From positions 1-64,000 of IMG/VR virus record IMGVR_UViG_3300021399_000130: a DNA stretch of 64,000 nt; one strand, 5' to 3'. Within the stretch, counting starts at the first letter, position 1. Each line of letters opens with the position of its first letter. This DNA comes from a virus. Its lineage: Duplodnaviria; Caudoviricetes. The translations under genes were made by a program, and so were the position numbers. The notes beneath the pieces are model-generated. The model did not search any database. It was not told the origin of the DNA and saw only the letters and a program-made list of their open reading frames with translations. Below, piece by piece: positions 4,408-39,214 of this stretch.

Positions 4408-4442
4408 TGTTAAATACCCGAAAAACAAGCATTAACTTAATT

Positions 4443-17876: not shown

Positions 17877-17899
17877 AATGCATTACTTTTATAATAAAT

Positions 17900-17931
17900 T
17901 AAACCTTGATGGTTAATAATCAAGGTTTTTT
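17900..17931. terminator. Intrinsic terminator
   Basis: AAACCTTGAT/ATCAAGGTTT stem with T-run. Confidence 0.75.
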
Positions 17932-20102: not shown

Positions 20103-20105
20103 ACT

Positions 20106-21158: not shown

Positions 21159-21191
21159 ATCTCATAAAAAAAGGGAGATTTATCGTCTCCC

Positions 21192-21908: not shown

Positions 21909-22747
21909 TATATCTTTTCCTCTTCTTCTTCATCATTATAGAGATTGTTCATCCTGTCCGTTAGGTCATTGAATGAATTCGTGAGCGTATTTCCGGTTTC
22001 TGGTGTCAGGTCGTCTTTCATAACCGGTCCATCGTTACCATAAAGGTCCGGATTTCTGTCGTTCGGCTCGTTTGCTGCGTTCGGGTCAATATCTGTCTTT
22101 GTAACCGGAACGGCATCACGAACAGGCTGGGTCTCCTTTGAATTATAGTCTTGACCGGCGACTTTGTCAATGTTTTTATCCTGTCTTTGACCTATTTTGG
22201 GGTTTGAAGTCTGCAGAACATCACGCACCGCATCGTTTGCCGTGTAGTATTCCTGCTCGGTATTCTTGTCCGCCCCGCCGTTATCAACCTCTCCCTTCCT
22301 AACAGGGTGACCGGTAACTACTTTTTCAGGTTTCTCTGGTTCTTCAGGTTGCTTTTCCGGTTTGGCGTTACCTATCGGTGAAATCGCATAAAGTGTTTCA
22401 ATCTGTTCGTCACCCTTGTCATTGAACCCATTAAGTTCCTCAGGGTTGAACGTCCGTGAGTTGTCGTTGTCCCACCTCTTTATTCTGTCAAGCCTGAAAA
22501 ACTTCCAAGCCGGCACCTCACTGGAAGTAGAACCCTGGGGCTGGAATGCACGTACGACAGGATTTCCCGCCGTTGAAATGCCATAAGCAACCGGATAAAT
22601 AACCCTTTCACCATTACCGGCGCCGGAAGGTCCATTATAGACAATCCTTACCGGGTGCATATTATTTACCGCATTGTTTATCGCATCAACGGAGGCATCT
22701 TCCCTTAAAAGGAAAGCCTCGGCGAGTATTTCCCTTAATAAGCTCAT
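21908..22747 (-). CDS. WYL-like domain protein with acidic tail
   Basis: VRIVY...ERVIYPVAYG...VRAF...WKFFRLDRIK. Confidence 0.7.
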   Translation of the reverse strand: MSLLREILAEAFLLREDASVDAINNAVNNMHPVRIVYNGPSGAGNGERVIYPVAYGISTAGNPVVRAFQPQGSTSSEVPAWKFFRLDRIKRWDNDNSRTFNPEELNGFNDKGDEQIETLYAISPIGNAKPEKQPEEPEKPEKVVTGHPVRKGEVDNGGADKNTEQEYYTANDAVRDVLQTSNPKIGQRQDKNIDKVAGQDYNSKETQPVRDAVPVTKTDIDPNAANEPNDRNPDLYGNDGPVMKDDLTPETGNTLTNSFNDLTDRMNNLYNDEEEEEKI

Positions 22748-22748
22748 C

Positions 22749-23120
22749 TTAAACTATAATCTGTCCGTCAGCAACATTAAGTGAGGTATCTACAAGAGCG
22801 GGTCCATACTGGTTTTCCTCGTTGTAGATATTGATGGCCATAAGCCTGTTTCTACCACCGATATCATTACGACCTTCAATATCGTATTTTCCGCCGCCAC
22901 CATCTGTATTGAAGTTTGAATAATCTATCATAGACGTTGGCAGGTTGCAATTCGGCACTGAATGGGTATGTCCCCCGTTTCCTGTACCTTTACCAAGAGG
23001 GTCTCCATCACTGAGAGCATCCTTATGGGTCTCTGAGTACTGGTCGTTAATGTTGTAATCGTTTCTTGTCAAGGCACTTGCTCTTGCGGGAATGCCTCGT
23101 TTTTCCAAACAAGTCTGCAT
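22749..23120 (-). CDS. Small Gly/Asp-rich putative virion protein
   Basis: Late operon; RNDY, DALSDGD.LGKG. Confidence 0.6.
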   Translation of the reverse strand: MQTCLEKRGIPARASALTRNDYNINDQYSETHKDALSDGDPLGKGTGNGGHTHSVPNCNLPTSMIDYSNFNTDGGGGKYDIEGRNDIGGRNRLMAINIYNEENQYGPALVDTSLNVADGQIIV

Positions 23121-23147
23121 ATTTCTTTTTACATTATAATCTATTCA

Positions 23148-23831
23148 TTATGCGTAGGTTATAAATCCCGTTCCTACGTTCGGGTCTTTTGTCATCTTTC
23201 TTGAGTGGGCCTTTCCGTTTCCGCTGTTCTTTGTGCCGCCGGCTTTTTGGAATTGATTTTCAAAGCCCATATTTTTCCGGTTTGTCTTCCTTTGCTTTAT
23301 GGCCCCGGTTTCTCTGTCAAGCACCCTGCATATGCCAGCCAGTGCGGACTTTACCTTCTGTATCTGCGGTTTCGGTGCGTTTTGTTGAACAAGTTGGGAT
23401 AGAAGCTGTTTTAACTCCGTTTTCTTGGTTGTAAGATTTGTATATGAGTATGTCTTTTTCTGACCATCGTTATCCAAATCCAGCCCCCAGGTCCTGTCTT
23501 CTAATTCCCCGTTACTTTCCTGGAGTTTTTTTTTACCTTCAGTCAGTTCCTTTGCACGAAGTCCGGAACCCCAATGTCCCCAAAGTCCGTGTCCGCCGTT
23601 CCTAAACAATAATGCAAACAAAGTCTCAGGTGCAAGTTCGTGTGCATAATCATCGGTTGTGAGAGGGTCTGAGTATTTCTTCTCCCCATTATCATCAGTT
23701 ACCGCACCGCCAGTTTTTGTTGTGGTCAGTCCGTCTTCGGCATAATCACTGGAATTGTCAAGGTATGCGGTATTCGCCCCGCTTATCTCGTTAAACTGGT
23801 CTTCCCTCAATATTAAAGTTTTACGGCCCAT
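23148..23831 (-). CDS. Hypothetical late protein with ILRE leader
   Basis: Late motif at 23857-23865. Confidence 0.7.
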   Translation of the reverse strand: MGRKTLILREDQFNEISGANTAYLDNSSDYAEDGLTTTKTGGAVTDDNGEKKYSDPLTTDDYAHELAPETLFALLFRNGGHGLWGHWGSGLRAKELTEGKKKLQESNGELEDRTWGLDLDNDGQKKTYSYTNLTTKKTELKQLLSQLVQQNAPKPQIQKVKSALAGICRVLDRETGAIKQRKTNRKNMGFENQFQKAGGTKNSGNGKAHSRKMTKDPNVGTGFITYA

Positions 23832-23950
23832 ATATTCCTATAAAGTATTATTTTTACATAAATAGTCGGTAAAATAGATTTGTCTTTATTTTAGCCACTT
23901 GACTTTATTACATTTTATAGTGATATTGTATTAGAAATATATAGAAAAAT

Positions 23951-25201
23951 ATGGCAGAAGATAAAAAGAAAATACACGTATTAGTCTGTCCCTCAGATAG
24001 TTACGGCGTGGGGCTCTACAGGTCAAAACGTCCCCACGAGAAACTCCAGGAACTCTATGGTGATGAATTTGAAGTGGAAATAAATATGAACCCGAATTGG
24101 GCCGACTTCCAGTCATTTGAAAAATATGATATAATCCACTTTCATAAGGGCCTTTTCACTGACGAAGGACAAAACGTTTTCCATAACGCACTGAGATACT
24201 TCAAGGAGCACAATATCACTACGATTATGGATATTGACGATAACTGGGACGTCGGGCAATATCATCCACTCTATCTATCCAATAAGGCAATCAAGGCCCC
24301 CGAGAAGATTACAACGAACTTTACGCTTGTGGATTACGTTACAACCACCACCGAAATCTTTGCAAAGAAAATTAGGAAGTGGAACAAGAACGTATTGATA
24401 TTCCCTAATGCAATCGACCCTGACGAAGAGCAGTATCAGCCAATCAAGTATCCTTCAGAGAGAATTCGTTTCGGGTTCGTAATGGGCTCATCGCACGAAA
24501 GGGATATGGAACAGATTAAGGGTCTTGCCGAAAAGCTTTATAATGCCGGTCTCAAAGATAAAATCCAGCTTGTCCTTTGCGGATATGACCTCAGGGGCAC
24601 TATAACAATGGTAGATAAGAATGGAAAGCCTACCGGACAGAGACCAATCGAGCCAAAGGAGAGTGTCTGGTATCGTTATGAACAGAACCTCACGAAGGAC
24701 TATACACTTATTTCGCCAGATTATAGGGATTTTCTTCTGCAGTTTATTCCCAACTCACAATATCCCGGTGTAAGGGACGAATTTTACCGGAGGGAATGGA
24801 CCAAGGACGTTAATAGCTTTGCAACGCATTACAGAAACCTTGACGTACTCCTGGCTCCGCTTGACACAAACTCATTCAACGAGGTGAAATCAGAGCTCAA
24901 GTTTGCCGAGGCGGGATTTACAAAGACGGCAGTCATATGCAGTGAATACGGTCCATATACCATTGGGAGCAAGTCTCTATTTAAACCCGGAGGAGAAATT
25001 GACGAAACCGGTAACTGCGTACTCATAGACCCCACAAAGGCTCACAAGGCGTGGTTCAAGGCAATCAAGAAACTTGCGGAACAGCCAGAGCTCATAAAAC
25101 TCTTGCAGAACAATATGTATGAGCACGTTAAGGACATCTATGACATAAACAAGGTTACGGAAAGAAGAGCCAACTGGTATAAGGAAATCGTTAAGAAGTA
25201 A
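23951..25201 (+). CDS. GT4-like (GT-B) glycosyltransferase
   Basis: IMDIDDNW, PNAID, GSSHERD, DVLLAPL..N.FNEVKSELKFAEAG. Confidence 0.85.
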   Translation: MAEDKKKIHVLVCPSDSYGVGLYRSKRPHEKLQELYGDEFEVEINMNPNWADFQSFEKYDIIHFHKGLFTDEGQNVFHNALRYFKEHNITTIMDIDDNWDVGQYHPLYLSNKAIKAPEKITTNFTLVDYVTTTTEIFAKKIRKWNKNVLIFPNAIDPDEEQYQPIKYPSERIRFGFVMGSSHERDMEQIKGLAEKLYNAGLKDKIQLVLCGYDLRGTITMVDKNGKPTGQRPIEPKESVWYRYEQNLTKDYTLISPDYRDFLLQFIPNSQYPGVRDEFYRREWTKDVNSFATHYRNLDVLLAPLDTNSFNEVKSELKFAEAGFTKTAVICSEYGPYTIGSKSLFKPGGEIDETGNCVLIDPTKAHKAWFKAIKKLAEQPELIKLLQNNMYEHVKDIYDINKVTERRANWYKEIVKK

Positions 25202-25235: not shown

Positions 25236-25275
25236 TAAACCCCCGGCATTACCGAGGGTTTGTTTTTTTTTTTTA
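25236..25275. terminator. Bidirectional terminator
   Basis: AAACCCCCGG/CCGAGGGTTT imperfect stem plus long T-run. Confidence 0.75.
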
Positions 25276-25276
25276 G

Positions 25277-27100
25277 TTAAGCAACGACTGAAGCGTTAGA
25301 GTCATCTTGTACGGTCCAGTTTGCTGGAATACCACTTTCACCAGTTGTCCAAGATGACATATTTGGGTCTTTTACAAATGTTCCGGTTGAAGAAACGCCA
25401 TCTACCCAATAATCTGTACAATTACTTGCAGAAATATCTGTTGCAAGACATTTGATGTAATTTAAGTTTGTACAACCTTCGAACATACTTTGATAACAAC
25501 CATCTGCCAATGTAGTAGCAGGAAGTGCAGGAGCAGTGGTTAAACTCGTACAGCTAAGGAACATATCGCTATAACAATTATTTGCCAATGTAGTAGCAGG
25601 AAGTGCAGGAGCAGTGGTTAAACTTGTACAACTATTGAACATACTACCATAACATTTATCTGCTAATGTAGTAGCGGGAAGTTCTGGTGCTGAAGTTAGA
25701 CTTGTACAACCTTGAAACATACTGCTATAACACCAATCTGCCAATGTAGTAGCGGGAAGCTCAGGTGCAATAGTTAAGCTTGTACAACTATTGAACATAC
25801 TACCATAACAATTACCTGCTAATGTAGTAGCAGGAAGTTCTGGTGCAGTAGTTAAACTTGAACAACCGCCGAACATACTACTATAACAACTCTCTGTCAA
25901 TGTAGTAGCAGGAAGTACTGGTGCAGTAGTTAAACTTGAACAACCGCCGAACATACTACTATAACACTGTTTTGCTAATGTAGTTGCTGGAAGAATGAGA
26001 TTTTCAGCAGAAGTTAAACCTGTGCACATCGCAAATAAATATGCAAATGCCCCATTATTAGCATTGGTCATTTCAGTAATTTCCTTGTAATTAACACTGT
26101 CTATGAGCGACATAATATTTCCTTCAAGGGTAAAACCAGCGGTAGAACCGACAAACGCCCCTATAGATATTAACCTCCTGAAAGGTTTTCCATCTTCAAG
26201 GTTGTATGTAGCATTATCCCCCCTAAATCGAACCTTATCACCGGCAACAACATTAATCTTGGTTCCGCCTGACATTGTTTCAGGGTCTAATGGTGATGCT
26301 GTTATTTCAGTCCATTCTCCACTATTTTTCTTATATTCGATGGTTGCCGCGCTTTCCCCAACGCAACTCCAGCTTATATCTCCTCCAGATGTTATATTGA
26401 ATGTCAAATAAGACACGGCGGCGGACTGCCATACTGTTACACTGTCGCTGTCATTAAATCCGCCATATGTTGCAGTAAGCGTAAGCGTGCCCGCCGAATG
26501 TCTCTCGACAAGTTCGCTTTCTTCAACAACCAATGACCCGATAACCACAGCTTCATCAGTAACATCTACTTCGTTACCATTATCATAATAAGCGGTAACT
26601 GAATATGAGCAGTTATCCTTTGTTGCAGTACCACCTTCGGCTGGGATATCAACCTCCCATGTAAGGTCATCGATGGTTATTGCTGTGAGTGTGGGTACGA
26701 ATGCCTCCTGGAAAACTATGATGCTCTTGCTCGCCTCAAACTCATCGTATGTCGCGGTAAGTGTAAGTGTGCCCGCCGAATGCCTCTCTTCAATCTGGGA
26801 AGCTGCAATGACAAGCGACCCGGTAACTGTCGCCTCATCTGTAATGTCCTTTTCTGTATAATCGTCATAAATGGCAAGGACGGTATATTCACAGTCATTT
26901 TTATCCACTGTTTTTCCGCTTGCAGGGACATCATTCTTCATAGCTAATCCAACTATCTCTATATTAAGTAGTTGTGCCTTGTTGAACGCGACCTCCTTTG
27001 TCTCTTCTACATAAGACACCCAAGGCTCTACATATTCCCCACCAGTATATGCGGAAATAAATTCATCGTGTGTTTCAAAATCTCTTAAGTATATTGCCAT
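25277..27100 (-). CDS. LRR adhesin A: N-terminal domain, 2 Ig-like repeats, one cassette with 7 x 26-aa LRR
   Basis: Start reassigned to MAIYLRDF (27100) below late motif 27122-27130; TSLTTAPELPATTLAxxCYxxMFxxC repeats (BspA/DUF285-like). Confidence 0.85.
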   Translation of the reverse strand: MAIYLRDFETHDEFISAYTGGEYVEPWVSYVEETKEVAFNKAQLLNIEIVGLAMKNDVPASGKTVDKNDCEYTVLAIYDDYTEKDITDEATVTGSLVIAASQIEERHSAGTLTLTATYDEFEASKSIIVFQEAFVPTLTAITIDDLTWEVDIPAEGGTATKDNCSYSVTAYYDNGNEVDVTDEAVVIGSLVVEESELVERHSAGTLTLTATYGGFNDSDSVTVWQSAAVSYLTFNITSGGDISWSCVGESAATIEYKKNSGEWTEITASPLDPETMSGGTKINVVAGDKVRFRGDNATYNLEDGKPFRRLISIGAFVGSTAGFTLEGNIMSLIDSVNYKEITEMTNANNGAFAYLFAMCTGLTSAENLILPATTLAKQCYSSMFGGCSSLTTAPVLPATTLTESCYSSMFGGCSSLTTAPELPATTLAGNCYGSMFNSCTSLTIAPELPATTLADWCYSSMFQGCTSLTSAPELPATTLADKCYGSMFNSCTSLTTAPALPATTLANNCYSDMFLSCTSLTTAPALPATTLADGCYQSMFEGCTNLNYIKCLATDISASNCTDYWVDGVSSTGTFVKDPNMSSWTTGESGIPANWTVQDDSNASVVA

Positions 27101-27150
27101 AATCAATAATATTTTACTGAATATAAATAGTCTCGGTCCGGGATAAAAAT

Positions 27151-27194
27151 AAAAAACCGAAGCAAAATGAAAACACCTTGCTTCGGTCATTTTT
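27151..27194. terminator. Terminator between adhesins B and A
   Basis: ACCGAAGCAA/TTGCTTCGGT stem with A/T runs. Confidence 0.7.
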
Positions 27195-27213
27195 AAACAA
27201 CATTTTAGTAATA

Positions 27214-29280
27214 TTATATATTATCTTCTATGGTCCAGTTTTCCGGAATCCCCCTTGGACCACTTCCCCAATCATTCATATTTTTATTTTTAACAAACGT
27301 TCCACTGGATGAAACATTATAAGCCCAATTCTCTACGCAATACACACCAGAAATATTCGTTGCAAGGCATTTAATATAATTTAAATTTCTACAATCCTGA
27401 AACATCCACGCATAACAATAATCTACCAATGTACCAGCTGGAAGCTCTGGTGCCGATGTTAGACCGGTACAATTATGGAACATTGTACGATAACAACTTT
27501 CAGCCAGTGTAGTAGCTGGAAGCTCTGGTGCGGTAGTTAAACTTGTACAATACCTGAACATCTCACGATAACAATATGGTGTCAAGCTCATTGCCGGCAT
27601 ATTATTCGGTCCTGAAACAAGGTTTGAACACCACCCAAACATATATTCATAGCAATAATCTGTTAAACTTGTTGCGGGTAATATAAGTTTGGCAGCGGAA
27701 GTAATTCCCGTACAATAATAAAATAAACGGCTGAACGTGAAAGCACTTGACAGGACACTAATGTCGGAATATCCTGTACTATTGACAAGCGACATTATGT
27801 TTCCTTCAACCTCAAACAGTGCGTTGGAACTTCGAAAGCTTGTGTATTCATCGCTGCTGTGTGCATATTGTTCATTATCACCTCTAAACAAAATAATGTC
27901 GCCGGAACTAACCGTGATACTTGCACCATTTACACTCGAAGTAATATTTGTCCAGTTGCCGTTGTTTTTCTTGTACTGAATTGTTTTATTAATTGTACTA
28001 TTTGAACTATTCCAACTTATTGTACCACTAGACAGAACGTTAAATGTAAGACATTTCTCAATAACAGGTCCAAAATCTTCAACTGTCCAAGAATAAGGTA
28101 TTCCGTTGGTACCACTAGTCCAATCTGTCATTTTAACATTTTTAACGAATGTTCCGGTAGAAGCAACGCCATTTACCCAATAATTTGTACAATCGATTGC
28201 AGAAATATCTGTTGCAAGACATTTAATGTAATTTAAATTTGTACAGTTAGAGAACATATTATTATAACAACTCTCTGCCAATGTAGTAGCAGGAAGTTCA
28301 GGTGCTGTAGTTAAACTTGTACAACCTTGGAACATTTGATAATAACAATAATTTACCAATGTAGTAGCAGGAAGTTCTGGTGCTGAAGTTAAACTTGTAC
28401 AACCACCGAACATATACCGATAACAACTACTTGCCAATGTGGTAGCTGGAAGTGCTGGGGATTTAGTTAAGCTTGTACAACCCCGGAACATACCCCAATA
28501 ACAACTACTTGCTAATGTAGTGGCAGGAAGTATAAGATTTTCAGCAGACATTAAACCAGTGCATTGATTGAACAAATTATAAAAAGTATAACTCGACACC
28601 AATGTAGTTGCTGTAGAAAAGTTTTCACTATCTATAAGCGACATTATATTTCCATCAAGCTCAAACTTCGCTGTCGAACCACTGAAAAAATTATAATATA
28701 AAGTACTGGTTGCATAAGTTGCATTATTCCCTCTAAACTGAATAATATCACCTGTTGTTACATTGATTGGTAATCCAGCAGTTGTTGAAGTAATGGTTGT
28801 CCATTCGTTATCATTTTTTTTATACTCAACGGAGTTACCATATATACTACCCTGTGATTTCCAATAAATCGTACCAGAAGATATAATATTGAAAGTCAAA
28901 GGTTTTTTGTAATCCAGTTTAACTTTATAATAAAATACAATGGAGGTGTCCTCGGGTATATTTGCGATTATTTTTTCTTCTTTTGCAACATATCCGTCAA
29001 TATTCTTGGGGGTCACAACAATTTCCTGCTTTACCCCAGATATGTATTTAACCCTCATTGTTTTGCACTCGGCAAGTTGTTCTCCATTTGATTTCTCATA
29101 ATAGATTGTCAAGGTATGGAACTGTACCGTCTTGTCGTGCGGGTTAAAATACATTTTCTTAAGGTCGGCGGTCTTAACGATGCCAGGAACCATTGCCTCG
29201 ACATCATTACCTGTTCCTCCGGCATTTATTTCGTCGGCTTTAAATGACGCATCGTTAGGATATAAACGTAAATATCTCAT
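27214..29280 (-). CDS. LRR adhesin B: N-terminal domain, MucBP-like domain, two cassettes (4+4 LRR)
   Basis: MRYLRLY start; HTLTIYY...PKNIDGY MucBP-like domain; two cap-LRR-cap blocks. Confidence 0.85.
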   Translation of the reverse strand: MRYLRLYPNDASFKADEINAGGTGNDVEAMVPGIVKTADLKKMYFNPHDKTVQFHTLTIYYEKSNGEQLAECKTMRVKYISGVKQEIVVTPKNIDGYVAKEEKIIANIPEDTSIVFYYKVKLDYKKPLTFNIISSGTIYWKSQGSIYGNSVEYKKNDNEWTTITSTTAGLPINVTTGDIIQFRGNNATYATSTLYYNFFSGSTAKFELDGNIMSLIDSENFSTATTLVSSYTFYNLFNQCTGLMSAENLILPATTLASSCYWGMFRGCTSLTKSPALPATTLASSCYRYMFGGCTSLTSAPELPATTLVNYCYYQMFQGCTSLTTAPELPATTLAESCYNNMFSNCTNLNYIKCLATDISAIDCTNYWVNGVASTGTFVKNVKMTDWTSGTNGIPYSWTVEDFGPVIEKCLTFNVLSSGTISWNSSNSTINKTIQYKKNNGNWTNITSSVNGASITVSSGDIILFRGDNEQYAHSSDEYTSFRSSNALFEVEGNIMSLVNSTGYSDISVLSSAFTFSRLFYYCTGITSAAKLILPATSLTDYCYEYMFGWCSNLVSGPNNMPAMSLTPYCYREMFRYCTSLTTAPELPATTLAESCYRTMFHNCTGLTSAPELPAGTLVDYCYAWMFQDCRNLNYIKCLATNISGVYCVENWAYNVSSSGTFVKNKNMNDWGSGPRGIPENWTIEDNI

Positions 29281-29312
29281 ATACAATAAATTAGTTTCAG
29301 TTTATGTTTTTA

Positions 29313-30614
29313 TTAAGCATCTTGCACGGTCCAGTTTGTAGGAATACCATTATTTCCTCTTGTCCAAGATGACATATTTGGATTTTTAACGAATGTTCCG
29401 GTTGAAGAAACACCATCTACCCAATAATCTGTACAATTATATGCAGAAATATCTGTTGCAAGACATTTGATATATTTCAAACTTGTACAACCATAGAACA
29501 TAGTTTCATAACAGTCATCTGCCAATGTTGTTGCAGGTAATTCTGGTGCTGTGGTTAAACTTGTACAATTAGAGAACATACCCCTATAACAATCCCACGC
29601 TAATGTAGTAGCGGGTAATTTAGGTGCTGTTGTTAAACTTGTACAATCACTGAACATATAGTAATAACAATATCTTGCCAATGTAGTAGCAGGAAGTTCC
29701 GGTGCTGTGGTTAATGATGTACAACGAGAGAACATACCAATATAACAATTAGTTGCCAATGTAGTAGCAGGAAGTTCTGGTGCAGTGGTTAAACTTCTAC
29801 AACTATCGAACATACCACAATAACAACCCTGCGTCAATGCAGTAGCAGGAAGCACAAGGTTTTCTGCAGAAGTTAAACCGGTACAGTTATAGAACAAATT
29901 ATAAAAAGTATAACTTGATGCCAAAGTAGTCTCTCTAGCAAAGTTAGTACTGTCTATGAGTGACATAATATTACCTTCGGCTTCAAACTTTGCTGTTGAA
30001 CCATTGAAAAAATTATAATACGAAGTATCAGTAGCATAAGTTGCATTATCACCTCTAAATTGAACAACGTCACCGGCATTTACAGAAATACTTGGTGCAG
30101 AAGTTCCGGTTTTTGCCGTAATACTGGTCCAGGTTTTTCCGCTATCTTTGCTATATTCGATTGTTGTTGTATAAGCGGAATTCTGTGCTTTCCACACAAT
30201 TGTACCAGCAGAAATAATATTAAATGTCAAAGGCTTTCTGTAATCCAGTTTAACTTTATAATAAAATACAATGGAGGTGTCCTCGGGTATATTTGCGATT
30301 ATTTTTTCTTCCTCTGCAACATATCCATCAATTACCTTTGGATACAAAATTAATTCTTGCGCCACCCCAGATAGATATTTTATTTCAATGGTTTCACTGT
30401 CAGCCAATTCTGTATCATCATACATAGATACATATTTTACAGTTAGCGTATGCGTTAATTTAGTCTCGTCGTGGGGGTTAAAATATGTCTTGCCGAGGTC
30501 CCATGTGCCTGATACCCCCGGAATACTTGTCTTAGTGCTGTTTCCGTCACCGCCGGCCCCTTGTTCATATGCCTTGAAAGCAGCATCTGTCTCATAGAAA
30601 CGAATATTTCTCAT
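29313..30614 (-). CDS. LRR adhesin C: N-terminal domain, MucBP-like domain, one cassette (5 LRR)
   Basis: Late motif 30633-30641; same caps and repeats. Confidence 0.85.
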   Translation of the reverse strand: MRNIRFYETDAAFKAYEQGAGGDGNSTKTSIPGVSGTWDLGKTYFNPHDETKLTHTLTVKYVSMYDDTELADSETIEIKYLSGVAQELILYPKVIDGYVAEEEKIIANIPEDTSIVFYYKVKLDYRKPLTFNIISAGTIVWKAQNSAYTTTIEYSKDSGKTWTSITAKTGTSAPSISVNAGDVVQFRGDNATYATDTSYYNFFNGSTAKFEAEGNIMSLIDSTNFARETTLASSYTFYNLFYNCTGLTSAENLVLPATALTQGCYCGMFDSCRSLTTAPELPATTLATNCYIGMFSRCTSLTTAPELPATTLARYCYYYMFSDCTSLTTAPKLPATTLAWDCYRGMFSNCTSLTTAPELPATTLADDCYETMFYGCTSLKYIKCLATDISAYNCTDYWVDGVSSTGTFVKNPNMSSWTRGNNGIPTNWTVQDA

Positions 30615-30693
30615 TTTATCACAATATTTTTCTATAAATAGTTAAAGTTTGGCATACTTTTTGTATATTAGTAAGGAAAACACTAAAGATATT

Positions 30694-31002
30694 ATGAAAG
30701 ATTACATTTACCTGGTTCTCACCAAGGGCTCAGACGGAAGATTCAGTACAACAGCCCACAAGACGTTTGAAGATGCACAGAAAACGCTCGAAATGTACAT
30801 AGATGCCCAGAAAGACCTAGAGGCACTGGATGGAAACATATACATCGACAGGCATAAGCTTGAAAGACTCAGGTTGCCGGAATTCACTATGAAGGATGAC
30901 GACATACTGGAGCAGGTAACAATCCATACAATGCCGACCATAGCCGGAAAGACGGTAAAATGTGTTACAGACAGATACATTATCAGGGTGGCAATCAATT
31001 AA
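30694..31002 (+). CDS. Hypothetical protein
   Basis: ATG at 30694 downstream of promoter-like TTTTTGTATATT. Confidence 0.6.
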   Translation: MKDYIYLVLTKGSDGRFSTTAHKTFEDAQKTLEMYIDAQKDLEALDGNIYIDRHKLERLRLPEFTMKDDDILEQVTIHTMPTIAGKTVKCVTDRYIIRVAIN

Positions 31003-31013
31003 ATACAGACACA

Positions 31014-31700
31014 ATGAGAGAAACATTACAGGAAAAATACTCCAAACTTCGTCAGAGGGAAAAAGAAATGTACAAAGAAATCGCGATTAAACTTTTCCCT
31101 GGGGTGGAAGAACTTGTCGGTAAGAAATTATACAAGTCCTACTCTTGCCCGAGGTGCCCGAAAGAAGAACTGGAAGAATGGACGATTACCGGATTTGGGT
31201 CCGTTGGGAAAAACCGGCACGAACTTGCTGATTACCTTGGCGGTTACTCATTCCCGTATGGCAAAAAGGTTACAAAGGTGCTCGTTGGCGAAGCGGAGGA
31301 ATATATCAAAAAATATGAGAGTGCCCCGTTGGATATGTTTAACGTAATTTTACACGTTGAAAAATACACTACGTACTCAGACGGAACAACCGCAAAATCT
31401 ACAACAGCAGAAACATTTGACATCGAGACGGGTTTTACTGATAATGTTTCGTTGAATAAGGAGGATTTCAAGGAAAAGATTGAGAAGGACAAGGAAGAGT
31501 ACGAGAAATACTACGCACCGAGGGAAGGGTATGTTGCCTGCGAAAGGTGCGGAAAACAAGTGCCTGAGAATGAAGTAGTTAAATACAAACTGATTTATCA
31601 GGCGTGGGACAATTATCGCGGAAAATATGTCACCAGCAGGATTGGTACATTTTGTTCCGGTGAATGTGCAATGAATGAACAAATGGCTTTAGAAGGATAA
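31014..31700 (+). CDS. Hypothetical protein with Cys-rich (Zn/TRASH-like) motifs
   Basis: CPRC; CERCG...FCSGEC. Confidence 0.65.
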   Translation: MRETLQEKYSKLRQREKEMYKEIAIKLFPGVEELVGKKLYKSYSCPRCPKEELEEWTITGFGSVGKNRHELADYLGGYSFPYGKKVTKVLVGEAEEYIKKYESAPLDMFNVILHVEKYTTYSDGTTAKSTTAETFDIETGFTDNVSLNKEDFKEKIEKDKEEYEKYYAPREGYVACERCGKQVPENEVVKYKLIYQAWDNYRGKYVTSRIGTFCSGECAMNEQMALEG

Positions 31701-31703
31701 ATT

Positions 31704-32735
31704 ATGATTAAAAGCATTAAATTCCCCAAGGAGGGTGCTGGATATCTATATACGAAGCCGGAAAAGCCAGGTAAGGCACCGGACAAGAAGGATTTCAGCT
31801 ATAGGGGTTATAACACCAACACCCATGAACCGGAATTCAAGCAGGAAAAGTATGACCGGGACTACAAGGAGTGGGAGGCTGACAAGAAATTTTATGACGA
31901 AAACAAGGGTAAGTTCATAAATCCAGCCGCCCCGGTACTTATGGGGAAGACCTTTAACTTCGAACCAGGCAAACTGAACATCATATTCGGTCCAAACGGG
32001 TGCGGAAAAACCACAATCCTCAAAGCCATTGCAGGAACCGCCGGAATTGTGGGGGATGGTATGACACGCCCAGAAGACCCACTCGATGTTTTTGGCTGGG
32101 ACAATGACAAAGAAAGTATTGAAGCCGTAGCTAAACGCATCGAAGAGCTTAAGCAGAACAGCTGTGAAGTTGAATGGGACGGAAATGTCGTTTATTATGA
32201 CAACTTCGCCCACACATTTAACTTTGGCAACGGCTTCATTGGCGGACTTGAAGGGACCGCTCTAGGTAGTTTTTCAGACGAGCTTACTTTTAGAATTGCA
32301 GGAAGTAAGACCAATGCCGGTAGAAGGGCTATGTGGATGCTCGGGAATGTTCTTGAATATCAGAAAATTGGACTGACCATAAAGAAAATATTTGAACCTT
32401 TTTTGAAAAACAAGAGGCAGAACGATACGTGGTATAAGTCCTACAAGACTCAGGACGAGTATTTCCAGCAATTTGAGAATTACGACAAGGAAGTGCCGAT
32501 GACAATACTGTTTGATGAGCCGGAGGTTAATTTTGACATCACGACAGTATGGAATCTATATCACAACGCGTTCCCGACAATTTGTGAAAAAATGGGGACA
32601 CAGATTATAACAGTATCGCACTCTCCAATCGTAATGTGTGAGGAAATCATCAACAATGAGCGAATCAACCTTATTTCGCTTGATGAAAGTTACACGAAGT
32701 CCGTAAAGGGGTTGCTACAGACAATGCAATTTTAA
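31704..32735 (+). CDS. Stand-alone ABC-class ATPase (AAA_21-like)
   Basis: GPNGCGKTT; ILFDEPE; ITVSHSP. Confidence 0.8.
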   Translation: MIKSIKFPKEGAGYLYTKPEKPGKAPDKKDFSYRGYNTNTHEPEFKQEKYDRDYKEWEADKKFYDENKGKFINPAAPVLMGKTFNFEPGKLNIIFGPNGCGKTTILKAIAGTAGIVGDGMTRPEDPLDVFGWDNDKESIEAVAKRIEELKQNSCEVEWDGNVVYYDNFAHTFNFGNGFIGGLEGTALGSFSDELTFRIAGSKTNAGRRAMWMLGNVLEYQKIGLTIKKIFEPFLKNKRQNDTWYKSYKTQDEYFQQFENYDKEVPMTILFDEPEVNFDITTVWNLYHNAFPTICEKMGTQIITVSHSPIVMCEEIINNERINLISLDESYTKSVKGLLQTMQF

Positions 32736-32791
32736 TATTTGATATTTCGGTTATTTTTCGGTATATTACTGAAGAATAACCGATTTATATT

Positions 32792-33394
32792 ATGAGAATA
32801 GAACCAATGGAAGGACTGGAAGACGTCCTGCTTATACACCCCGACCTGCATGAGGATGAGCGGGGTTATTTCTATGAAGTATTCAACGAAAAGGAATTCA
32901 ACGAGAAAACGGGAGGCAAGTATGACTTTCACGCACTCCAGGAAAACGAAAGCAAGTCCTGCAAGGGTGTGTTCAGGGGGCTCCATTTTCAAAAACCACC
33001 TTATGAGCAAGCGAAACTTGTGAGAGTATTAAAAGGACACGTTGTTGATTTTGCTGTTGATATAAGAAAAGACAGCCCAACTTTCGGAAAATGTACATGT
33101 GCTAAACTTACCGGAGAAAACAAATTGCAATTTTTTATACCGAGGGGTTTTGCCCATGGATTTTATGTCTTTTCCGATGAAGCGATTTTTGAATATAAGT
33201 GCGACAACTACTACAACAAAGAAAGTGAAGGAGGAATTAGATGGGACGACAAAGATATTTTACTTCTTCCATATTACAATACGGTTGGAAAATTTACTCT
33301 GTCCATAAAAGATATGTTTGATGCCCTTCATTATTCCCCAATAATTCTCTCCGAAAAGGACAAGAACAGAATAACTACGCTAAAAGACTTATAA
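32792..33394 (+). CDS. rmlC: dTDP-4-dehydrorhamnose 3,5-epimerase
   Basis: DERGYF, NESKS..GVFRGLHFQ, QAKLVRV.KG, IPRGFAHGF, YKCDNYY; promoter TTGATA-N17-TATATT at 32739-32767. Confidence 0.95.
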   Translation: MRIEPMEGLEDVLLIHPDLHEDERGYFYEVFNEKEFNEKTGGKYDFHALQENESKSCKGVFRGLHFQKPPYEQAKLVRVLKGHVVDFAVDIRKDSPTFGKCTCAKLTGENKLQFFIPRGFAHGFYVFSDEAIFEYKCDNYYNKESEGGIRWDDKDILLLPYYNTVGKFTLSIKDMFDALHYSPIILSEKDKNRITTLKDL

Positions 33395-33395
33395 T

Positions 33396-33836
33396 ATGTT
33401 TTTACAAGAAAAAATAAGTGATAAACTAATCCAGGAAAGATACGAAGGTTCCCTGGTAAAAACAACCCCGAAAGAACTGATAGAATGTTATCCCGTCTTT
33501 AAGGATTTTTTCACACACATAAACCGCTGGAATAATAAAACCCTATGTCTTAAGTTTGCCAAAAATGGCGAACACGACATCAAGGACCGTTACAGAATAC
33601 TGATTTTTAGTGAAAAACACTCATACGCAATAGATGTTGTACAAGATGATAAGCACGAAAACCCATACATTGGCTGTGTAAGCAGTTGTGAATATAGGCT
33701 GCCGCTTGAAACCTGGAACAGAGGAAGCGACCTTACAGATGGGTATAATGGGGAGAAAACCATTATGTCAATACTTTTAGATATTGTTCAAACCGAGATG
33801 ATTGGGCTTGAAGTTGAAGGATATAATAAAAAATAG
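33396..33836 (+). CDS. Hypothetical phage protein
   Basis: 146-aa ORF; ETWNRGSDLTDG motif. Confidence 0.65.
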   Translation: MFLQEKISDKLIQERYEGSLVKTTPKELIECYPVFKDFFTHINRWNNKTLCLKFAKNGEHDIKDRYRILIFSEKHSYAIDVVQDDKHENPYIGCVSSCEYRLPLETWNRGSDLTDGYNGEKTIMSILLDIVQTEMIGLEVEGYNKK

Positions 33837-33847
33837 TTTATAAGCAT

Positions 33848-34768
33848 ATGAACATACTTGTAACAGGGGCAAACGGTCAGTTAGGTAGGTGTATCCGTGA
33901 CCGTGTAAAATTACTTAAAAACACCGACAATACATATATCTTTACCGACGTTGTTGAAGATGAAAACACCGAGTTTCTCGACATAATTGACGATGACGAT
34001 GTGAAAAAGTTCGTAAGGGACCGATTTATAAACGTAATAATCAACTGTGCGGCATATACTAACGTAGATAAAGCTGAGACCGATTATGAAACGGCGGAGG
34101 CTCTCAACGCAATCGCACCCAGGACGCTTGCAGAAGCCGCATTATCAGTTGGGGCTAAACTTATCCACATTTCTACGGACTATGTCTTTAATGGTCAGAG
34201 CTTCTTGCCATACACTGAAGACAGAATGACGCTCCCCGTATCAGTTTATGGGAAGACAAAGAGAATGGGTGAGGAATTTATCATAAAAAGCGGCTGTCAG
34301 TATCTTATTTTTAGAACCGCTTGGCTTTACAGTAAGTATGGCAATAACTTCGTAAAGACAATGCGGAGTCTTTTTGGGAAGAAAGACGAGATTAATGTTG
34401 TTAATGACCAAATTGGAACACCTACATATGCCGGCAACCTCGCTGAACTCATCGTCAATATCATAGAATGCAGGACACCGCTTGAAGGAAAGGATATAAT
34501 CCCGCTACTTGAAAACGGTATCTATCACTTTACGGACGAGGGTGTATGCAGCTGGTACGATTTTGCTAAGTATATTTACGAAATATGGTCAAGTAAGGTT
34601 CTTGGTCTCGCAAAAATAAATGGAGTTACAACAAAGGAATATGGTTCAAAGACAAAACGTCCATATTACTCCGTGTTGGATAAGACAAAATATAAGACCG
34701 ACTTCAAAGGCCTTTATATACCGAAACATTGGCACTATGGCGTACGACAGGTGTTAGACTTAGACTAA
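33848..34768 (+). CDS. rmlD: dTDP-4-dehydrorhamnose reductase
   Basis: ILVTGANGQLG, NCAAYTNVDKAE, HISTDYVF, YGKTK, DQIG.PTY. Confidence 0.95.
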   Translation: MNILVTGANGQLGRCIRDRVKLLKNTDNTYIFTDVVEDENTEFLDIIDDDDVKKFVRDRFINVIINCAAYTNVDKAETDYETAEALNAIAPRTLAEAALSVGAKLIHISTDYVFNGQSFLPYTEDRMTLPVSVYGKTKRMGEEFIIKSGCQYLIFRTAWLYSKYGNNFVKTMRSLFGKKDEINVVNDQIGTPTYAGNLAELIVNIIECRTPLEGKDIIPLLENGIYHFTDEGVCSWYDFAKYIYEIWSSKVLGLAKINGVTTKEYGSKTKRPYYSVLDKTKYKTDFKGLYIPKHWHYGVRQVLDLD

Positions 34769-34795
34769 GAATAAAGAAGGAAAAACGAATAAAAA

Positions 34796-35422
34796 ATGAG
34801 TAAGATTTATAATGAACAAATACCGGTAGGTAAAAAAATAAATGGTGTTACGGTAGTAAAACCTCAAACCGAACTTAAAGATATCTGTAATGAAGGTCAA
34901 ATTTTCGACGGACCTGAAAGTAACAAGAAGGATTTGACACTCGGGCAGCGAATCTTAAAGGAATATGCGGAAGATAAAGTTCGAACAGATATGAGGTATA
35001 AGATGCAGCACGCTTTTGTGACAGAAGATGAAGAAGATAAGATTGCGGAAAAATTATGGGAAACAAGGAATAAGGACTTAGATAACGAGCCAGACGCCGA
35101 TGACGTTGGTGACAAGCCCAAAAAATGCGACTATGAAGCCCAGACGGTTAAAAATGCAAAACCACGCTCTTTTAACAATATCTGTCAGGAAATTGCAAAG
35201 CTCCACGAAAAGAAGAATAATGACTATGGCAATGCTGCAGATGCTTCATATAGGGAATTCGGCATTGTGAGCTATGTAATCAGACTTAACGATAAAATGA
35301 ACCGGTTGAAAACGCTCACTAAACCAGGAGCAAAGCAGTTAATAAAGTGCGAGAGCATTGAAGATACCCTTATGGACCTTGCCGCCTACGCAATTATGGC
35401 AATCGAATCATTAAGAAACTAA
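34796..35422 (+). CDS. DUF1599 / nucleotide-modification-associated domain 1 (MazG-like) protein
   Basis: KKNNDYGNA...IRLNDKMNRL...ESIEDTLMDLAAYAIM. Confidence 0.8.
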   Translation: MSKIYNEQIPVGKKINGVTVVKPQTELKDICNEGQIFDGPESNKKDLTLGQRILKEYAEDKVRTDMRYKMQHAFVTEDEEDKIAEKLWETRNKDLDNEPDADDVGDKPKKCDYEAQTVKNAKPRSFNNICQEIAKLHEKKNNDYGNAADASYREFGIVSYVIRLNDKMNRLKTLTKPGAKQLIKCESIEDTLMDLAAYAIMAIESLRN

Positions 35423-35429
35423 AAAAAAT

Positions 35430-35460
35430 TAAAGACCACCATTATTTGGAGGTCTTTTTC
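35430..35460. terminator. Bidirectional terminator
   Basis: AAAGACC/GGTCTTT stem. Confidence 0.65.
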
Positions 35461-35819
35461 TTATGTTTTTCCATTACGATTCCCAGAACCTTGGCTTCAT
35501 CATATAACGAGTAATCTTTCTTACCCTTTCTCAGTTCCTTCATTGTCTCACACATTTCATCATAAATCTCGCCCGGGTTATACTTCCCCTTGAACGAATT
35601 ATCCTTTGTGAGCATCTCCGTAATCACATATACATCTATACAGAACTGCTCATTAAACGGCGGACCCTCCTTTCTTTTCTTTGCCTCCCACTTTTCCGCA
35701 AGCTCAAATCTTTCGCTAAGAACATCAAGTTTGTCATCCGGAAAATCTTTTTGAAGCATCCATCGCCCTCTGAACAATTCGACTTTATTTTCTATTTCTT
35801 TCTTTGTCTCTTTTGCCAT
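35442..35819 (-). CDS. Hypothetical protein
   Basis: 125-aa ORF. Confidence 0.6.
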   Translation of the reverse strand: MAKETKKEIENKVELFRGRWMLQKDFPDDKLDVLSERFELAEKWEAKKRKEGPPFNEQFCIDVYVITEMLTKDNSFKGKYNPGEIYDEMCETMKELRKGKKDYSLYDEAKVLGIVMEKHKKKTSK

Positions 35820-35856
35820 TTTTAAAAGTATTACGTAATATTATAAAGGAAAATTA

Positions 35857-35885
35857 TTGATTAAACAATGATTTTTTTGTATAAT
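35857..35885 (+). promoter_or_regulatory. Sigma70-like promoter
   Basis: TTGATT-N17-TATAAT with TG extension. Confidence 0.65.
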
Positions 35886-35902
35886 GTAGAAAAAGGAACG
35901 TT

Positions 35903-36418
35903 ATGGCAACAAAGAAGATTACATTGACAGACGAGCATATTCGCTTGATACAGAATATAAATTTTCACGCATTTGAATTCGGTGAGGAACTGCCAATAGA
36001 ACCCATTATCGAGGCAATGGAAGAGATTGATGTAATGCCGCCGGAAAGACGCAAGAAGTTTTCCAGGCTCCACAGCAAACTTTTCGACGTAAGAAACCGA
36101 ATCAACGAATACAATGACGAAGCATCACAGAATGGCTGGGGGATTAATCAGTGGAATATGTTCGGCGGCACCTTTGTTATGGAAGATGTGGCGCTCATTA
36201 CGGGGCATTACGGGGAAGAAATCGATGATGGGGCCTCTGGTAAGGTATATCCTAAGGAACTGGAAGACCATATGTGGGAACTATACCTATACATCACCAA
36301 CAATATGGAATACATTATGAGACTTGTTCTCTGGTCAATTTCAAACGGCGGACTAACAGCTGGAACGTACAAGACAACTGATAAGGGAATAAGCTGGACC
36401 AAAGTCGATGCTGAATAA
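35903..36418 (+). CDS. Hypothetical protein
   Basis: 171-aa ORF followed by terminator 36418-36455. Confidence 0.65.
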   Translation: MATKKITLTDEHIRLIQNINFHAFEFGEELPIEPIIEAMEEIDVMPPERRKKFSRLHSKLFDVRNRINEYNDEASQNGWGINQWNMFGGTFVMEDVALITGHYGEEIDDGASGKVYPKELEDHMWELYLYITNNMEYIMRLVLWSISNGGLTAGTYKTTDKGISWTKVDAE

Positions 36419-36454
36419 AAAACGGACTCACTTGATTGTGGGCCCGTTTCTTTT

Positions 36455-36748
36455 TTAATATTCTCCGGAATCAATTGCTGCGTCATCAATATCGAGCGGA
36501 GTTTCGTCCTTGAAATTAACAACCAATTCCTTTATACGCTTGTCAATATATTCCTTGACTTTATATTCTGGGATAAAAGTAACAATCTCATCATTATCGT
36601 TACGGATTGCGATGGTTTCAATGCCATCACCGTAGTTTATTGCAATCTCGCCATACTCAAGCTGCTCGCTGGTGGGGAGTTTTGGTGATACCCCATCCTC
36701 CCCACGTTGTTTGCTCTTTATATGAATCAGTTTCCAATTCTTAGCCAT
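36455..36748 (-). CDS. Small tail-fibre-associated protein
   Basis: KLPTSEQLEYGEIAINY resembles the L..GE.A.N motif of tail-fibre N-terminal modules; directly downstream of adhesin D. Confidence 0.5.
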   Translation of the reverse strand: MAKNWKLIHIKSKQRGEDGVSPKLPTSEQLEYGEIAINYGDGIETIAIRNDNDEIVTFIPEYKVKEYIDKRIKELVVNFKDETPLDIDDAAIDSGEY

Positions 36749-36764
36749 AATAGTTCGTTAGTTT

Positions 36765-39098
36765 TTAAACGTTATCTTGTATGGTCCAGTTTGTGGGAAT
36801 ACCATTTACACCAGTTGTCCAAGATGACATATTTGGGTTTTTAACGAATGTACCTGAAGAAGAAACATTACTTACCCAATAATTTGTACAATAACTTGCA
36901 GAAATATCCGTTGCAAGACATTTAATGTAATTTAAACTTGTACAGCCATAGAACATACCACTATAGCAACTACTTGCCAATGTAGTAGCAGGTAATTCTG
37001 GTGCGGTTGTTAAACTTGTACAATTCCAGAACATATTACCATAACAACTATTTGCTAATGTAGTAGCAGGTAATTCTGGTGCTTTGGTTAAACTTGAACA
37101 ACCATCGAACATATTATTATAACAATAATTTGTCAATGTAGTAGCAGGAAGTGCTGGCGCTGTTGTTAAACTTGTACAATTCCAGAACATTTGATAATAA
37201 CAATAACTCGCCAATGTAGTAGCAGGAAGTACCGAAGGTGTCGTTGTTAAACTTGTGCAACCATAGAACATATTACTATAACACTGATATACCAATGTAG
37301 TAGCAGGAAGTACAAGATTTTCAGCGGAAGTTAAACCAGCACATTGATAGAATAAACGATAAAAAGTATAATTTGATGCTAAAGTGGCTGCGGTAGCAAA
37401 GTTAGTACTATCTATAAGTGACATTGTGTTGCCTTCAACTTCAAACCTCGCTGTTGTGCCACTGAAAGTATTATACATTGAAGTACCAGTAGCGTAAGTT
37501 GCATTATCACCTCTAAATTGTACAACATCACCAGCATTTACTGAAATAGTTGGTGCTGAAGTTCCTGTGTTTGAGGCAATACTGGTCCATCCTCCATCAT
37601 TTTTCTTATATTGAACGGATATCGTATATTTAGTGCTATATGCTTTCCAATAAATCGTACCGGAAGAGATAATGTTGAAGGTCAAAGGTGTTTCAATAAG
37701 ATATTTTTCATTCACTGTCAATGTTGCAACATTTGTACCGTCTGTGAATGTTACCGTTCCCGTTCTATTTGTGTTCTGCGTATTTGCAGTAATGGTGATG
37801 GTTGTGTCGCCTGTACCTCCGGTGTATTGTGAAAGACCGTACCAATCATCATTTGTTGTCGCTGTCCAACTATTAAATGATGACGTAATTGTGATAGTTT
37901 TAGCGCTGGTAATTTCGCTTAAGGTAATGTTAGAGCGAGAAAGCTTGAAACCATAATCTTTAATGGACCATTTAGAAGGGATACCACTTGGTCCGCTTAC
38001 CCAGTTTGCCATATTTGCATCTTTAACGAATGTACCGGTAGAAGAAACATTATTTACCCAATAATTTGTACAATTACTTGCAGAAATATCTGTTGCAAGG
38101 CATTTAATGTAATTTAAACTTGTACAGCCATAGAACATACTTCTATAACAACCACTTACCAATGTAGTAGCAGGAAGTTCAGGTGCTATAGTTAAACTTG
38201 TACAATTATAGAACATACCTTGATAACAAAAATCTGCCAATGTAGTAGCAGGAAGTTCTGGGGTCGTGGTTAAACTTCTACAAGTATCGAACATACTCTC
38301 ATAACAACTATGTGCCAATGTTGTTGCAGGAAGTACAAGATTTACAGCAGAAGTTAAACCAGTACATTGATAGAACAAATAGCTAAAAGTATAACTTGAT
38401 ACCAATATAGTTGCAGTAGCGAAGTTTTCACTATCTATAAGTGACATTATATTTCCTTCAACTTTAAACTTTGCCGTTGTGCCACTGAAAGTGCTGTATC
38501 TTGAACCGCCGGAATTATAAGTTGTATTGTTTCCCCTAAACTGAACAACATCGCCAGCACTTACAGAAATACTTGGTGCTGAAGTTCCGGTATTTGAAGT
38601 AATAGTTATCCATTCTCCATCATTTTTCTTATATTCGATAGAATTAGTATAAGCCGGATTGTTCGTTTTCCAATTAATTGTACCGGCAGAAATAATATTG
38701 AACGTAAGTGGTTTTTTATAGTCCGGAATAGATTTATAGAAAAAAGTATATTCTGTATTATCATTTATTATAAGCTCTTCGCTATTATTTAGTGCTGTGT
38801 ATCCACTAATGCCTTTAGCAATGATGGTTTCCTTAACACTCTTTCCAACATAAGCATCAACAGCATATACATCGTCCGGTGCCAACGTTTTATTTGACCT
38901 ACTTTTATAATGTACTGTTACAGTGTAACTTGTAAGGTTTTCACTGTCATTATTGGCAAATCTATAATATGCCTTTTCCTGGTCGTTAGTCCAAGCAACG
39001 CCATCAACGACTGATACGACCTTTGTTCCATCCCCACCAACGCTAGTCTGGTCGGCAATAAAGTTACTATCCAGCTTGTAATACAAAAGATACTTCAT
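36765..39098 (-). CDS. LRR adhesin D: N-terminal domain, MucBP-like domain, cassette (3 LRR), BACON domain, cassette (5 LRR)
   Basis: Late motif 39117-39125; BACON-like SWTATTNDDWYGLS...G...ITIT..N...RTGTVTF. Confidence 0.85.
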   Translation of the reverse strand: MKYLLYYKLDSNFIADQTSVGGDGTKVVSVVDGVAWTNDQEKAYYRFANNDSENLTSYTVTVHYKSRSNKTLAPDDVYAVDAYVGKSVKETIIAKGISGYTALNNSEELIINDNTEYTFFYKSIPDYKKPLTFNIISAGTINWKTNNPAYTNSIEYKKNDGEWITITSNTGTSAPSISVSAGDVVQFRGNNTTYNSGGSRYSTFSGTTAKFKVEGNIMSLIDSENFATATILVSSYTFSYLFYQCTGLTSAVNLVLPATTLAHSCYESMFDTCRSLTTTPELPATTLADFCYQGMFYNCTSLTIAPELPATTLVSGCYRSMFYGCTSLNYIKCLATDISASNCTNYWVNNVSSTGTFVKDANMANWVSGPSGIPSKWSIKDYGFKLSRSNITLSEITSAKTITITSSFNSWTATTNDDWYGLSQYTGGTGDTTITITANTQNTNRTGTVTFTDGTNVATLTVNEKYLIETPLTFNIISSGTIYWKAYSTKYTISVQYKKNDGGWTSIASNTGTSAPTISVNAGDVVQFRGDNATYATGTSMYNTFSGTTARFEVEGNTMSLIDSTNFATAATLASNYTFYRLFYQCAGLTSAENLVLPATTLVYQCYSNMFYGCTSLTTTPSVLPATTLASYCYYQMFWNCTSLTTAPALPATTLTNYCYNNMFDGCSSLTKAPELPATTLANSCYGNMFWNCTSLTTAPELPATTLASSCYSGMFYGCTSLNYIKCLATDISASYCTNYWVSNVSSSGTFVKNPNMSSWTTGVNGIPTNWTIQDNV

Positions 39099-39214
39099 TT
39101 CAAAACGATATTTTCTTATAAATAGTCATTGCCTCTCATAAATCGGTTTTGTTCTTCCAATACTTTTTTGTATATTAATAAAGCAGATAAACGTTTAATT
39201 TAACATAGAGGAAT

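Follow-up and report, generated by a model that had tools for sequence, protein, structure and literature searches.

Described repeat-based binding systems and the phage locus

Leucine-rich repeat (LRR) proteins of the BspA/TpLRR class (Pfam family LRR_5) are represented by Tannerella forsythia BspA and by the solved structures 4fs7, 4h09, 4fd0, 4fdw and 6mlx. Their repeat follows the TpLRR consensus LxxLxLxxxLxxIgxxAFxx(C/N)xx and is 23–25 residues long (PMC2946307). Here we describe four phage genes, A to D, that belong with this class. They lie in the first 64 kb (hereafter the window, the whole stretch of DNA that was analysed) of the 90.6-kb IMG/VR record IMGVR_UViG_3300021399_000130, and they carry LRR units between conserved caps. 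The phage cassettes share with the bacterial proteins the solenoid fold (Z 12–14), the motif logic, with two-in/two-out alternation up to the cysteine, so that xxIGxxAFxxC lines up with xxCYxxMFxxC, and the habitat, gut and rumen. They differ in that their units have 26 residues, the stretches that line up with the beta-strand segment (TTAPE, PATTL) stay fixed, both the N-cap and the C-cap are distinctive as well as conserved, signal peptide and lipobox are absent, and Pfam scores are at or below the cut-off. On the sequence and model evidence given below, A–D are probably BspA/TpLRR-class paralogues displayed on the virion as adhesins or host-recognition proteins, and diversified by ordinary selection and recombination.

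Other described systems resemble the locus in part. The variable lymphocyte receptors (VLRs) of lampreys and hagfish have in common with it capped LRR arrays, a variable number of units, diversity at fixed positions and DNA copying between homologous LRR segments. However, the 90.6-kb record has no incomplete germline gene, no silent donor arrays and no deaminase of the AID/APOBEC type, and the phage caps are unrelated to those of VLRs. The variable positions of the phage units lie in the variable segment of the repeat and not on the concave strand, and the variation was observed by comparing genomes, not within a single individual. VLR structures are distant matches to the model of the gene C product (2o6r, Foldseek E 0.27). 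Diversity-generating retroelements (DGRs), as in Mtd of Bordetella phage BPP-1, also act on a phage binding protein with a fixed scaffold and few hypervariable codons of the NNY type, but the LRR genes are without a reverse transcriptase, a template repeat and an adenine-specific pattern. Finally, mosaic tail-fibre and receptor-binding loci share with A–D a conserved N-terminal part, a distal part that diverges fast between close relatives, segment exchange among paralogues and late-looking expression. They differ in that A–D adopt an LRR solenoid, not a trimeric fibre or beta-helix, and lie outside any recognisable tail module.

Repeat units and variable positions

The four minus-strand open reading frames (ORFs) give clean translations. 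Translation and motif parsing bear out the four genes, six cassettes and 28 unique units of the initial annotation, with 7, 4, 4, 5, 3 and 5 units of 26 amino acids (aa) per cassette. Units were parsed on the CYxxMFxxC core, with x denoting unit positions 16, 17, 20, 21, 24 and 25, and Tandem Repeats Finder returned arrays of 78 nucleotides (nt) at every cassette site. As first reported, all six-residue sets differ (28/28) and a scaffold string recurs among the copies; each of the four genes contains the 17-mer AATGTAGTAGCAGGAAG, which has 13 copies in total where 0 are expected. The x residues are enriched in S, G, N, Y, D, Q, R and W. The scaffold had also been described as nearly invariant at synonymous sites. 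This holds for the core codons only, which are fixed well above genomic codon usage (TAT 28/28, TGT 26–27/28, TTC 25/28, ACA 25/28). It does not hold overall (pS 0.36 and dS ~0.49, the synonymous differences among 20 canonical units), and DNA identity between units ranges from 54 to 91%.

Variation is concentrated at the six x positions of each unit, as had been claimed: among units, the ratio of nonsynonymous to synonymous change (dN/dS) is ~1.8 at x codons and 0.15 at scaffold codons. Comparison with L012, a 91%-identical relative, gave 15 nonsynonymous and 4 synonymous differences at x codons, 6 and 27 at scaffold codons, and 55 and 73 in the remainder of the LRR genes. In the syntenic relative L011, flanking proteins are 68–98% identical to those of the window (10/13 above 80%) and the LRR proteins 47–70%, with conserved N-termini (90% in D, where the whole protein is 47% identical, and 93% in A).

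The cassette belongs to the BspA/TpLRR class

The AlphaFold2 model of C (mean predicted local distance difference test score, pLDDT, 87.5), built with 32 homologues, has residues 128–433 as an LRR solenoid. Its closest solved structures are 4fs7 (Z 14.2, 209 residues aligned, root-mean-square deviation 3.2), 4h09 (13.6), 4fd0 (12.3), 4fdw (12.0) and PcpA (11.3). These are surface proteins of gut bacteria with LRRs of the BspA type (4fs7 is BACOVA_04585), and eukaryotic and effector LRRs rank lower (Z 8–10). A profile made from the 32 homologues matched 4fs7 at E 3.8e-6 and Treponema pallidum TpLRR (6mlx) at E 0.048, whereas a single-protein phmmer search of the PDB gave no match. With neighbouring in-frame matches summed, D reaches 31.7 bits against Pfam LRR_5 (PF13306; cut-off 27.7), and many homologues among the matches listed carry a PF13306 pre-annotation. 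The LRR_5 search of the gene B protein gave no match, and neither did Pfam LRRNT or LRRCT on the caps at E<=0.01. We assign the cassette to the BspA/TpLRR class (Pfam LRR_5), as a variant with units of 26 residues, and the model and structure matches uphold the earlier description of LRR solenoids with capped cassettes.

In the profile alignment, xxCYxxMFxxC sits over xxIGxxSFxxC, column for column, and the three residues by which the unit exceeds the TpLRR consensus fall within and after the conserved segment. The x positions are canonical non-conserved positions of the TpLRR variable segment (PMC2946307). The initial annotation had placed them on the concave beta-strand, but in these units the stretch that lines up with the beta-strand segment (TTAPE) shows almost no variation, and that placement finds no support in the alignment. 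The x positions lie within a 10-residue arc of each coil and should stack into one continuous variable stripe.

PARCEL/DUF285 repeats (TIGR02167, PF03382) also resemble the cassette in part. They have a 26-residue period, form LRR-like solenoids of surface proteins and give weak hidden Markov model matches, and among the matches listed one homologue has PF03382 and PF13306 together. However, TIGR02167 scores 17–28.6 bits against a cut-off of 30, the matches cover profile positions 1–10 only, and the structure and profile matches favour LRR_5.

Accessory modules, expression and the site of action

In the preferred reading, a rumen jumbo myovirus encodes BspA/TpLRR-class paralogues without signal peptides, their cassettes joined to modules of adhesion type (MucBP-like beta-grasp, DUF3869-type repeats, BACON), and each 26-residue unit combines a fixed frame with six exposed variable-segment positions (xxCYxxMFxxC). 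On this reading, diversity comes from point substitution under diversifying selection at x codons, from ectopic gene conversion among units and among paralogues, and from unequal crossing-over that alters unit number. The proteins are most likely virion-displayed adhesins, at fibre tips or as decoration proteins. They would attach to glycans or proteins that vary on the host surface, or to the matrix of the host habitat, and would in this way help to determine adsorption or host range. Variation of the repertoire would take place in the phage population and not in the course of a single infection.

When the N-terminal domain of B, C and D (aa 50–125) was modelled alone, its top 15 Foldseek matches were all MucBP-containing entries, led by 3i57 (E 2.4e-4), 4mt5 (4.6e-4) and 3nz3 (7e-4). 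By sequence the match to MucBP (PF06458) is not significant (D, E 2.2, 9.5 bits), though it spans profile positions 1–60 of 63, and on the model the domain appears MucBP-like. Residues 1–49 are predicted to be disordered, yet they have a conserved Y..D..F......GG.G motif. BACON in D scores 26.8 bits (cut-off 25), and DUF3869 in A scores 26.5 bits, in two repeats. No signal peptide was found in A–D by direct inspection of the sequences, and an ESM Atlas feature search with the N-terminal 127 aa returned no usable match. The N-terminal module was also considered as a recognised fibre anchor, and this was rejected: in 17 close relatives it occurs on LRR proteins and on no other kind of protein.

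A promoter-like motif, ACTATTTATA, has seven copies in the window against 0.36 expected (Table 1), and besides A, C and D it precedes the tail sheath, portal and adaptor genes. Its core, CTATTTAT, has 18 copies in the 90.6-kb record, and 17/18 are followed by an ORF start within 130 nt, most at 16–32 nt. We regard the motif and its core as a candidate late promoter of this phage clade. A–D had been called late genes, and the motif that A, C and D share with structural genes suggests late, structural-class expression. Because B starts 32 nt past C and has no motif of its own, it is probably co-transcribed with C. Automatic gene calls give gene A as a 637-aa ORF (25277–27190). Its true start is probably at 27100, because the first 30 codons of that ORF overlap the gene B terminator and the gene A promoter-like motif. 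The initial annotation had chosen the same start, with which the promoter and terminator signals agree and at whose ATG the L011 orthologue begins.

Table 1 Features of the LRR locus, in window coordinates (-, minus strand; tracts of B and C are given within the genes)
Feature	Position	Strand	Description
Gene A, 607 aa	25277..27100	-	N-terminal peptide, two DUF3869-type repeats (probably immunoglobulin-like), one cap-LRR-cap cassette
Gene A cassette	25310-26410 (aa 231-597)	-	7 units at 25472-26017
Gene B, 688 aa	27214..29280	-	N-terminal peptide, MucBP-like domain (28906-29133), two cassettes
Gene B cassette 1	28081-28902	-	4 units
Gene B cassette 2	27229-28053	-	4 units, more diverged
Gene C, 433 aa	29313..30614	-	Predicted disordered, conserved N-terminal peptide (aa 1-49), MucBP-like beta-grasp, one cassette
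Gene C MucBP-like beta-grasp	30240-30467 (aa 50-125)	-	
Gene C cassette	29325-30233	-	5 units at 29487-29876
Gene D, 777 aa	36765..39098	-	N-terminal peptide, MucBP-like domain (38724-38951), cassette 1, BACON, cassette 2
Gene D cassette 1	37962-38711	-	3 units
Gene D BACON domain	37710-37871 (aa 410-463)	-	Between both cassettes
Gene D cassette 2	36780-37688	-	5 units
Exact tract of 73 nt, B = C	B 28908..28980, C 30239-30311	-	Inside otherwise diverged N-terminal domains
Polymorphic conversion patch in B	28981..29053 (aa 76-100)	-	Two ENA assemblies carry C sequence, 22 nt differences
Promoter-like motif ACTATTTATA	27122-27131	-	22 nt before the ATG of A
Promoter-like motif ACTATTTATA	30633-30642	-	Before C
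Promoter-like motif ACTATTTATA	39117-39126	-	Before D
Promoter-like motif ACTATTTATA, further window copies	1533-1542, 4399-4408, 59605-59614, 61049-61058	-	
Terminator-like hairpin	27155-27188	-	15 pairs and T run, after gene B
Second terminator-like hairpin	25237-25261	-	After gene A

Several points weigh against the reading of A–D as virion-displayed, fast-diversifying proteins of the LRR_5 family. The genes lie in a glycosyltransferase/dTDP-rhamnose island, outside any recognisable tail-fibre or baseplate block, and the N-terminal module (residues 1–127) is confined to 17 close relatives, every time with LRRs. LRR solenoids are usually monomers and most phage receptor-binding proteins are trimers. 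Pfam LRR_5 scores of A (20.2 bits) and C (22.4 bits) stay under the cut-off of 27.7. That the x positions share one face is an argument from solenoid geometry, not a measurement, and the virion location of A–D is our inference, with indirect support from the promoter-like motif shared with the sheath, portal and adaptor genes. Moreover, one relative has an LRR protein that is letter-identical on 9 contigs, so turnover of the LRR genes is not fast everywhere.

It is also conceivable, though we consider it unlikely, that A–D are non-virion binders, late accessory genes acquired from bacterial hosts whose products act in the infected cell or after lysis, where they might sequester host proteins, inhibit a defence, or cover cells and debris and make them clump. 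Proteins of this kind would suit the missing signal peptides and a position in an accessory sugar-metabolism island instead of the tail module, yet the MucBP-like, BACON and DUF3869 domains (with CHB_HEX_C and GH2 in a relative) are of extracellular, glycan-associated types. LRRs are general protein binders, the effector LRRs SspH1 and IpaH match structurally at Z 9–10, and the cassette is clearly common to bacterial genomes; however, A–D share their promoter-like motif with the sheath, portal and adaptor genes, and the family is kept in multiple copies across the jumbo-phage clade.

Recombination between copies

The homology-guided copying between copies that the initial annotation invoked is supported by a tract shared by B and C, a patch in B and units replaced relative to L012. 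The 73-nt B/C tract is a trace left by recent ectopic gene conversion. Directly adjoining it is the polymorphic patch in B. Over ~34 kb, the window and two ENA assemblies of this phage agree at every position except for the 22 substitutions in this patch. An assembly artefact was considered as the source of the patch and judged unlikely, as two assemblers give the C-like form and L012 confirms the B-like form (in assemblies, not reads), and the left junction has no long B/C identity at which an assembler could switch. We note that one of the ENA assemblies (NODE_* contigs) breaks in the tract shared by B and C, with contig L179 ending (20107) 289 nt into B and L181 beginning inside C; a break of this kind would be predicted for a sample in which ~146 nt of B are identical to C.

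Differences from L012 are clustered, with 25 in 96 nt of C (p ~1e-7) and 11 in 33 nt of B. Two of 12 units are replaced in L012, and both best match non-orthologous units (e.g., B12.4 versus D.6 and B.3 at 0.91). The three orthologues in L011 have 9, 5 and 8 units; one of them has a single cassette where D has two and BACON, and C11, the L011 orthologue of C, has a B-like N-terminal domain. A TnpB/IS605-type gene (OrfB_IS605, Cas12f1-like TNB; L011 1793–2977) stands directly beside the gene D orthologue.

Tests of programmed diversification

Gene conversion between copies that is real and recent, two units replaced in a close relative, and capped LRR arrays with unique x-combinations would also agree with a programmed VLR-like system in which receptors are put together, as the phage passes through its life cycle, from 78-nt modules copied out of donor cassettes. 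We hold such a programme to be highly improbable and rejected it. All four LRR genes are intact, complete ORFs with signals of their own (promoter-like motifs for A, C and D, terminators after A and B), and no silent or partial 78-nt unit was found outside A–D in the 90.6-kb record, which is ~25% of the genome. An APOBEC-type deaminase (PF08210) was not found in the record or in four complete related jumbo phages. No reverse transcriptase (PF00078) was found in the record, the four complete relatives or one partial relative, in agreement with the absence first reported. The ~34 kb that include all 28 units are the same in independent assemblies, bar the one patch, which lies outside the LRR units. 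Ordinary lipoprotein genes of bacteria are organised in the same way. Together with the LRR protein that is identical on 9 contigs of one relative, these results speak against the VLR-like assembly that the initial annotation had proposed.

With regard to the codons at x positions, 72% end in T and 93% have A or G as the second base. Serine at these positions is encoded by AGT in 29/35 cases, against 19% genome-wide, and AGT accounts for 68% of x-position serine codons in 568 viral units versus 24% in 653 bacterial units. The residue make-up at the x positions (G, S, N, Y, D, E) is alike in the two sets. Substitutions relative to L012 hit all four bases (e.g., TGT>AAT, TCT>TAT, CGG>TGG), in tracts with synonymous scaffold changes. 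Because there is no reverse transcriptase, no template copy and no restriction of the substitutions to one base, the pattern fits rapid single-step turnover among AAT, AGT, GGT, GAT and TAT in an AT-rich genome better than a DGR. Targeted hypermutation (DGR-like or deaminase-like) that writes the x codons is scarcely credible, and a DGR was rejected: the NNT-like x-codon pattern and the AGT-rich serine, more so in viral than in bacterial units, would be in its favour, but no reverse transcriptase is found in the record or four complete relatives, no template-like extra copy of the unit exists in the 90.6-kb record, and changes between close relatives extend beyond adenines, in tracts with synonymous scaffold changes.

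Distribution in bacteria and phages

The cassette is not a phage invention but part of a huge family across bacteria and phages. A word-indexed homologue search gave at least 8,000 matches, and an exhaustive phmmer search of 1.84 billion cluster representatives (50%-identity clusters) gave 22,560 at E<=1e-3 and 11,002 at E<=1e-30, with up to ~20 matched stretches in some giant proteins of the family. Species-representative prokaryote genomes have 460 loci, mostly in rumen and gut Prevotella, other Bacteroidales and Treponema. Homologues from cultured isolates are lipoproteins, such as that of Treponema sp. C6A8 (1,923 aa, 12 units) and those of Prevotella sp. khp7, which has three tandem paralogous genes (L062 2913–7336) with lipobox signal, Big_2-like domain and cassette. 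The khp7 genes have the same cap-LRR-cap cassette with differing x residues and are a bacterial counterpart of the phage array. In the ESM Atlas, the neighbours are fusions of the cassette with Mfa-like fimbrillin, Big_2 or BACON; they come from Bacteroidota and tailed viruses.

Among viral contigs, a profile search found 186 stretches that code for the cassette, whereas a single-protein search gave no match. Four complete phages of 353–393 kb have ~3–10 cassette genes each, and in three of the four the portal is 49–59% identical to that of the phage described here. A related 363-kb phage (G001; L174 4255–10362) encodes a 2,035-aa protein that has LRR cassettes together with carbohydrate-binding CHB_HEX_C modules and a GH2 glycoside hydrolase domain, and it is possible that this protein is a glycan-degrading adhesin. 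Our literature searches found no paper that describes phage genes for BspA-type LRRs.

Genome context

CheckV estimates the completeness of the 90.6-kb record at 25%, and record length and completeness together suggest a whole genome of ~350 kb. The window codes for a family-B DNA polymerase, an SNF2 helicase, a T4-type portal, a tail sheath and a head-tail adaptor. From this, the phage can be classed as a jumbo myovirus. The names of samples and the sources of homologues indicate a rumen habitat. A megablast search of the locus against deposited phages gave no match.

The LRR genes are surrounded by a sugar-metabolism island (window 17196–25201 and 31704–35422), which contains GT25-like, TOD1/MUCI70-like and other glycosyltransferases, RmlC, RmlD, an ABC-type ATPase and DUF1599. 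Its counterpart in L011 additionally has a hexapeptide transferase.

Implications

For now, the locus gives a clear, if ordinary, example of a fast-evolving multigene binding family. A more far-reaching proposal, to which we give little credence, is that the LRR paralogues are displayed on the particle and form a combinatorial receptor-renewal system that works at population level without a reverse transcriptase. Conversion would here outpace point mutation, because one conversion patch is the sole difference over ~34 kb, and the system would be a recombinational counterpart of DGRs, present across the clade of rumen jumbo phages. If A–D are on the particle, a widespread clade of rumen jumbo phages would use an LRR solenoid, and not a trimeric fibre, to bind hosts or matrix. 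The module is one that their likely Prevotella-type hosts also have in surface lipoproteins and fimbrial proteins. Such a solenoid would moreover supply a naturally occurring, well-behaved scaffold in which six positions of every coil could be designed, and would explain how these phages track variable surfaces without a retroelement.

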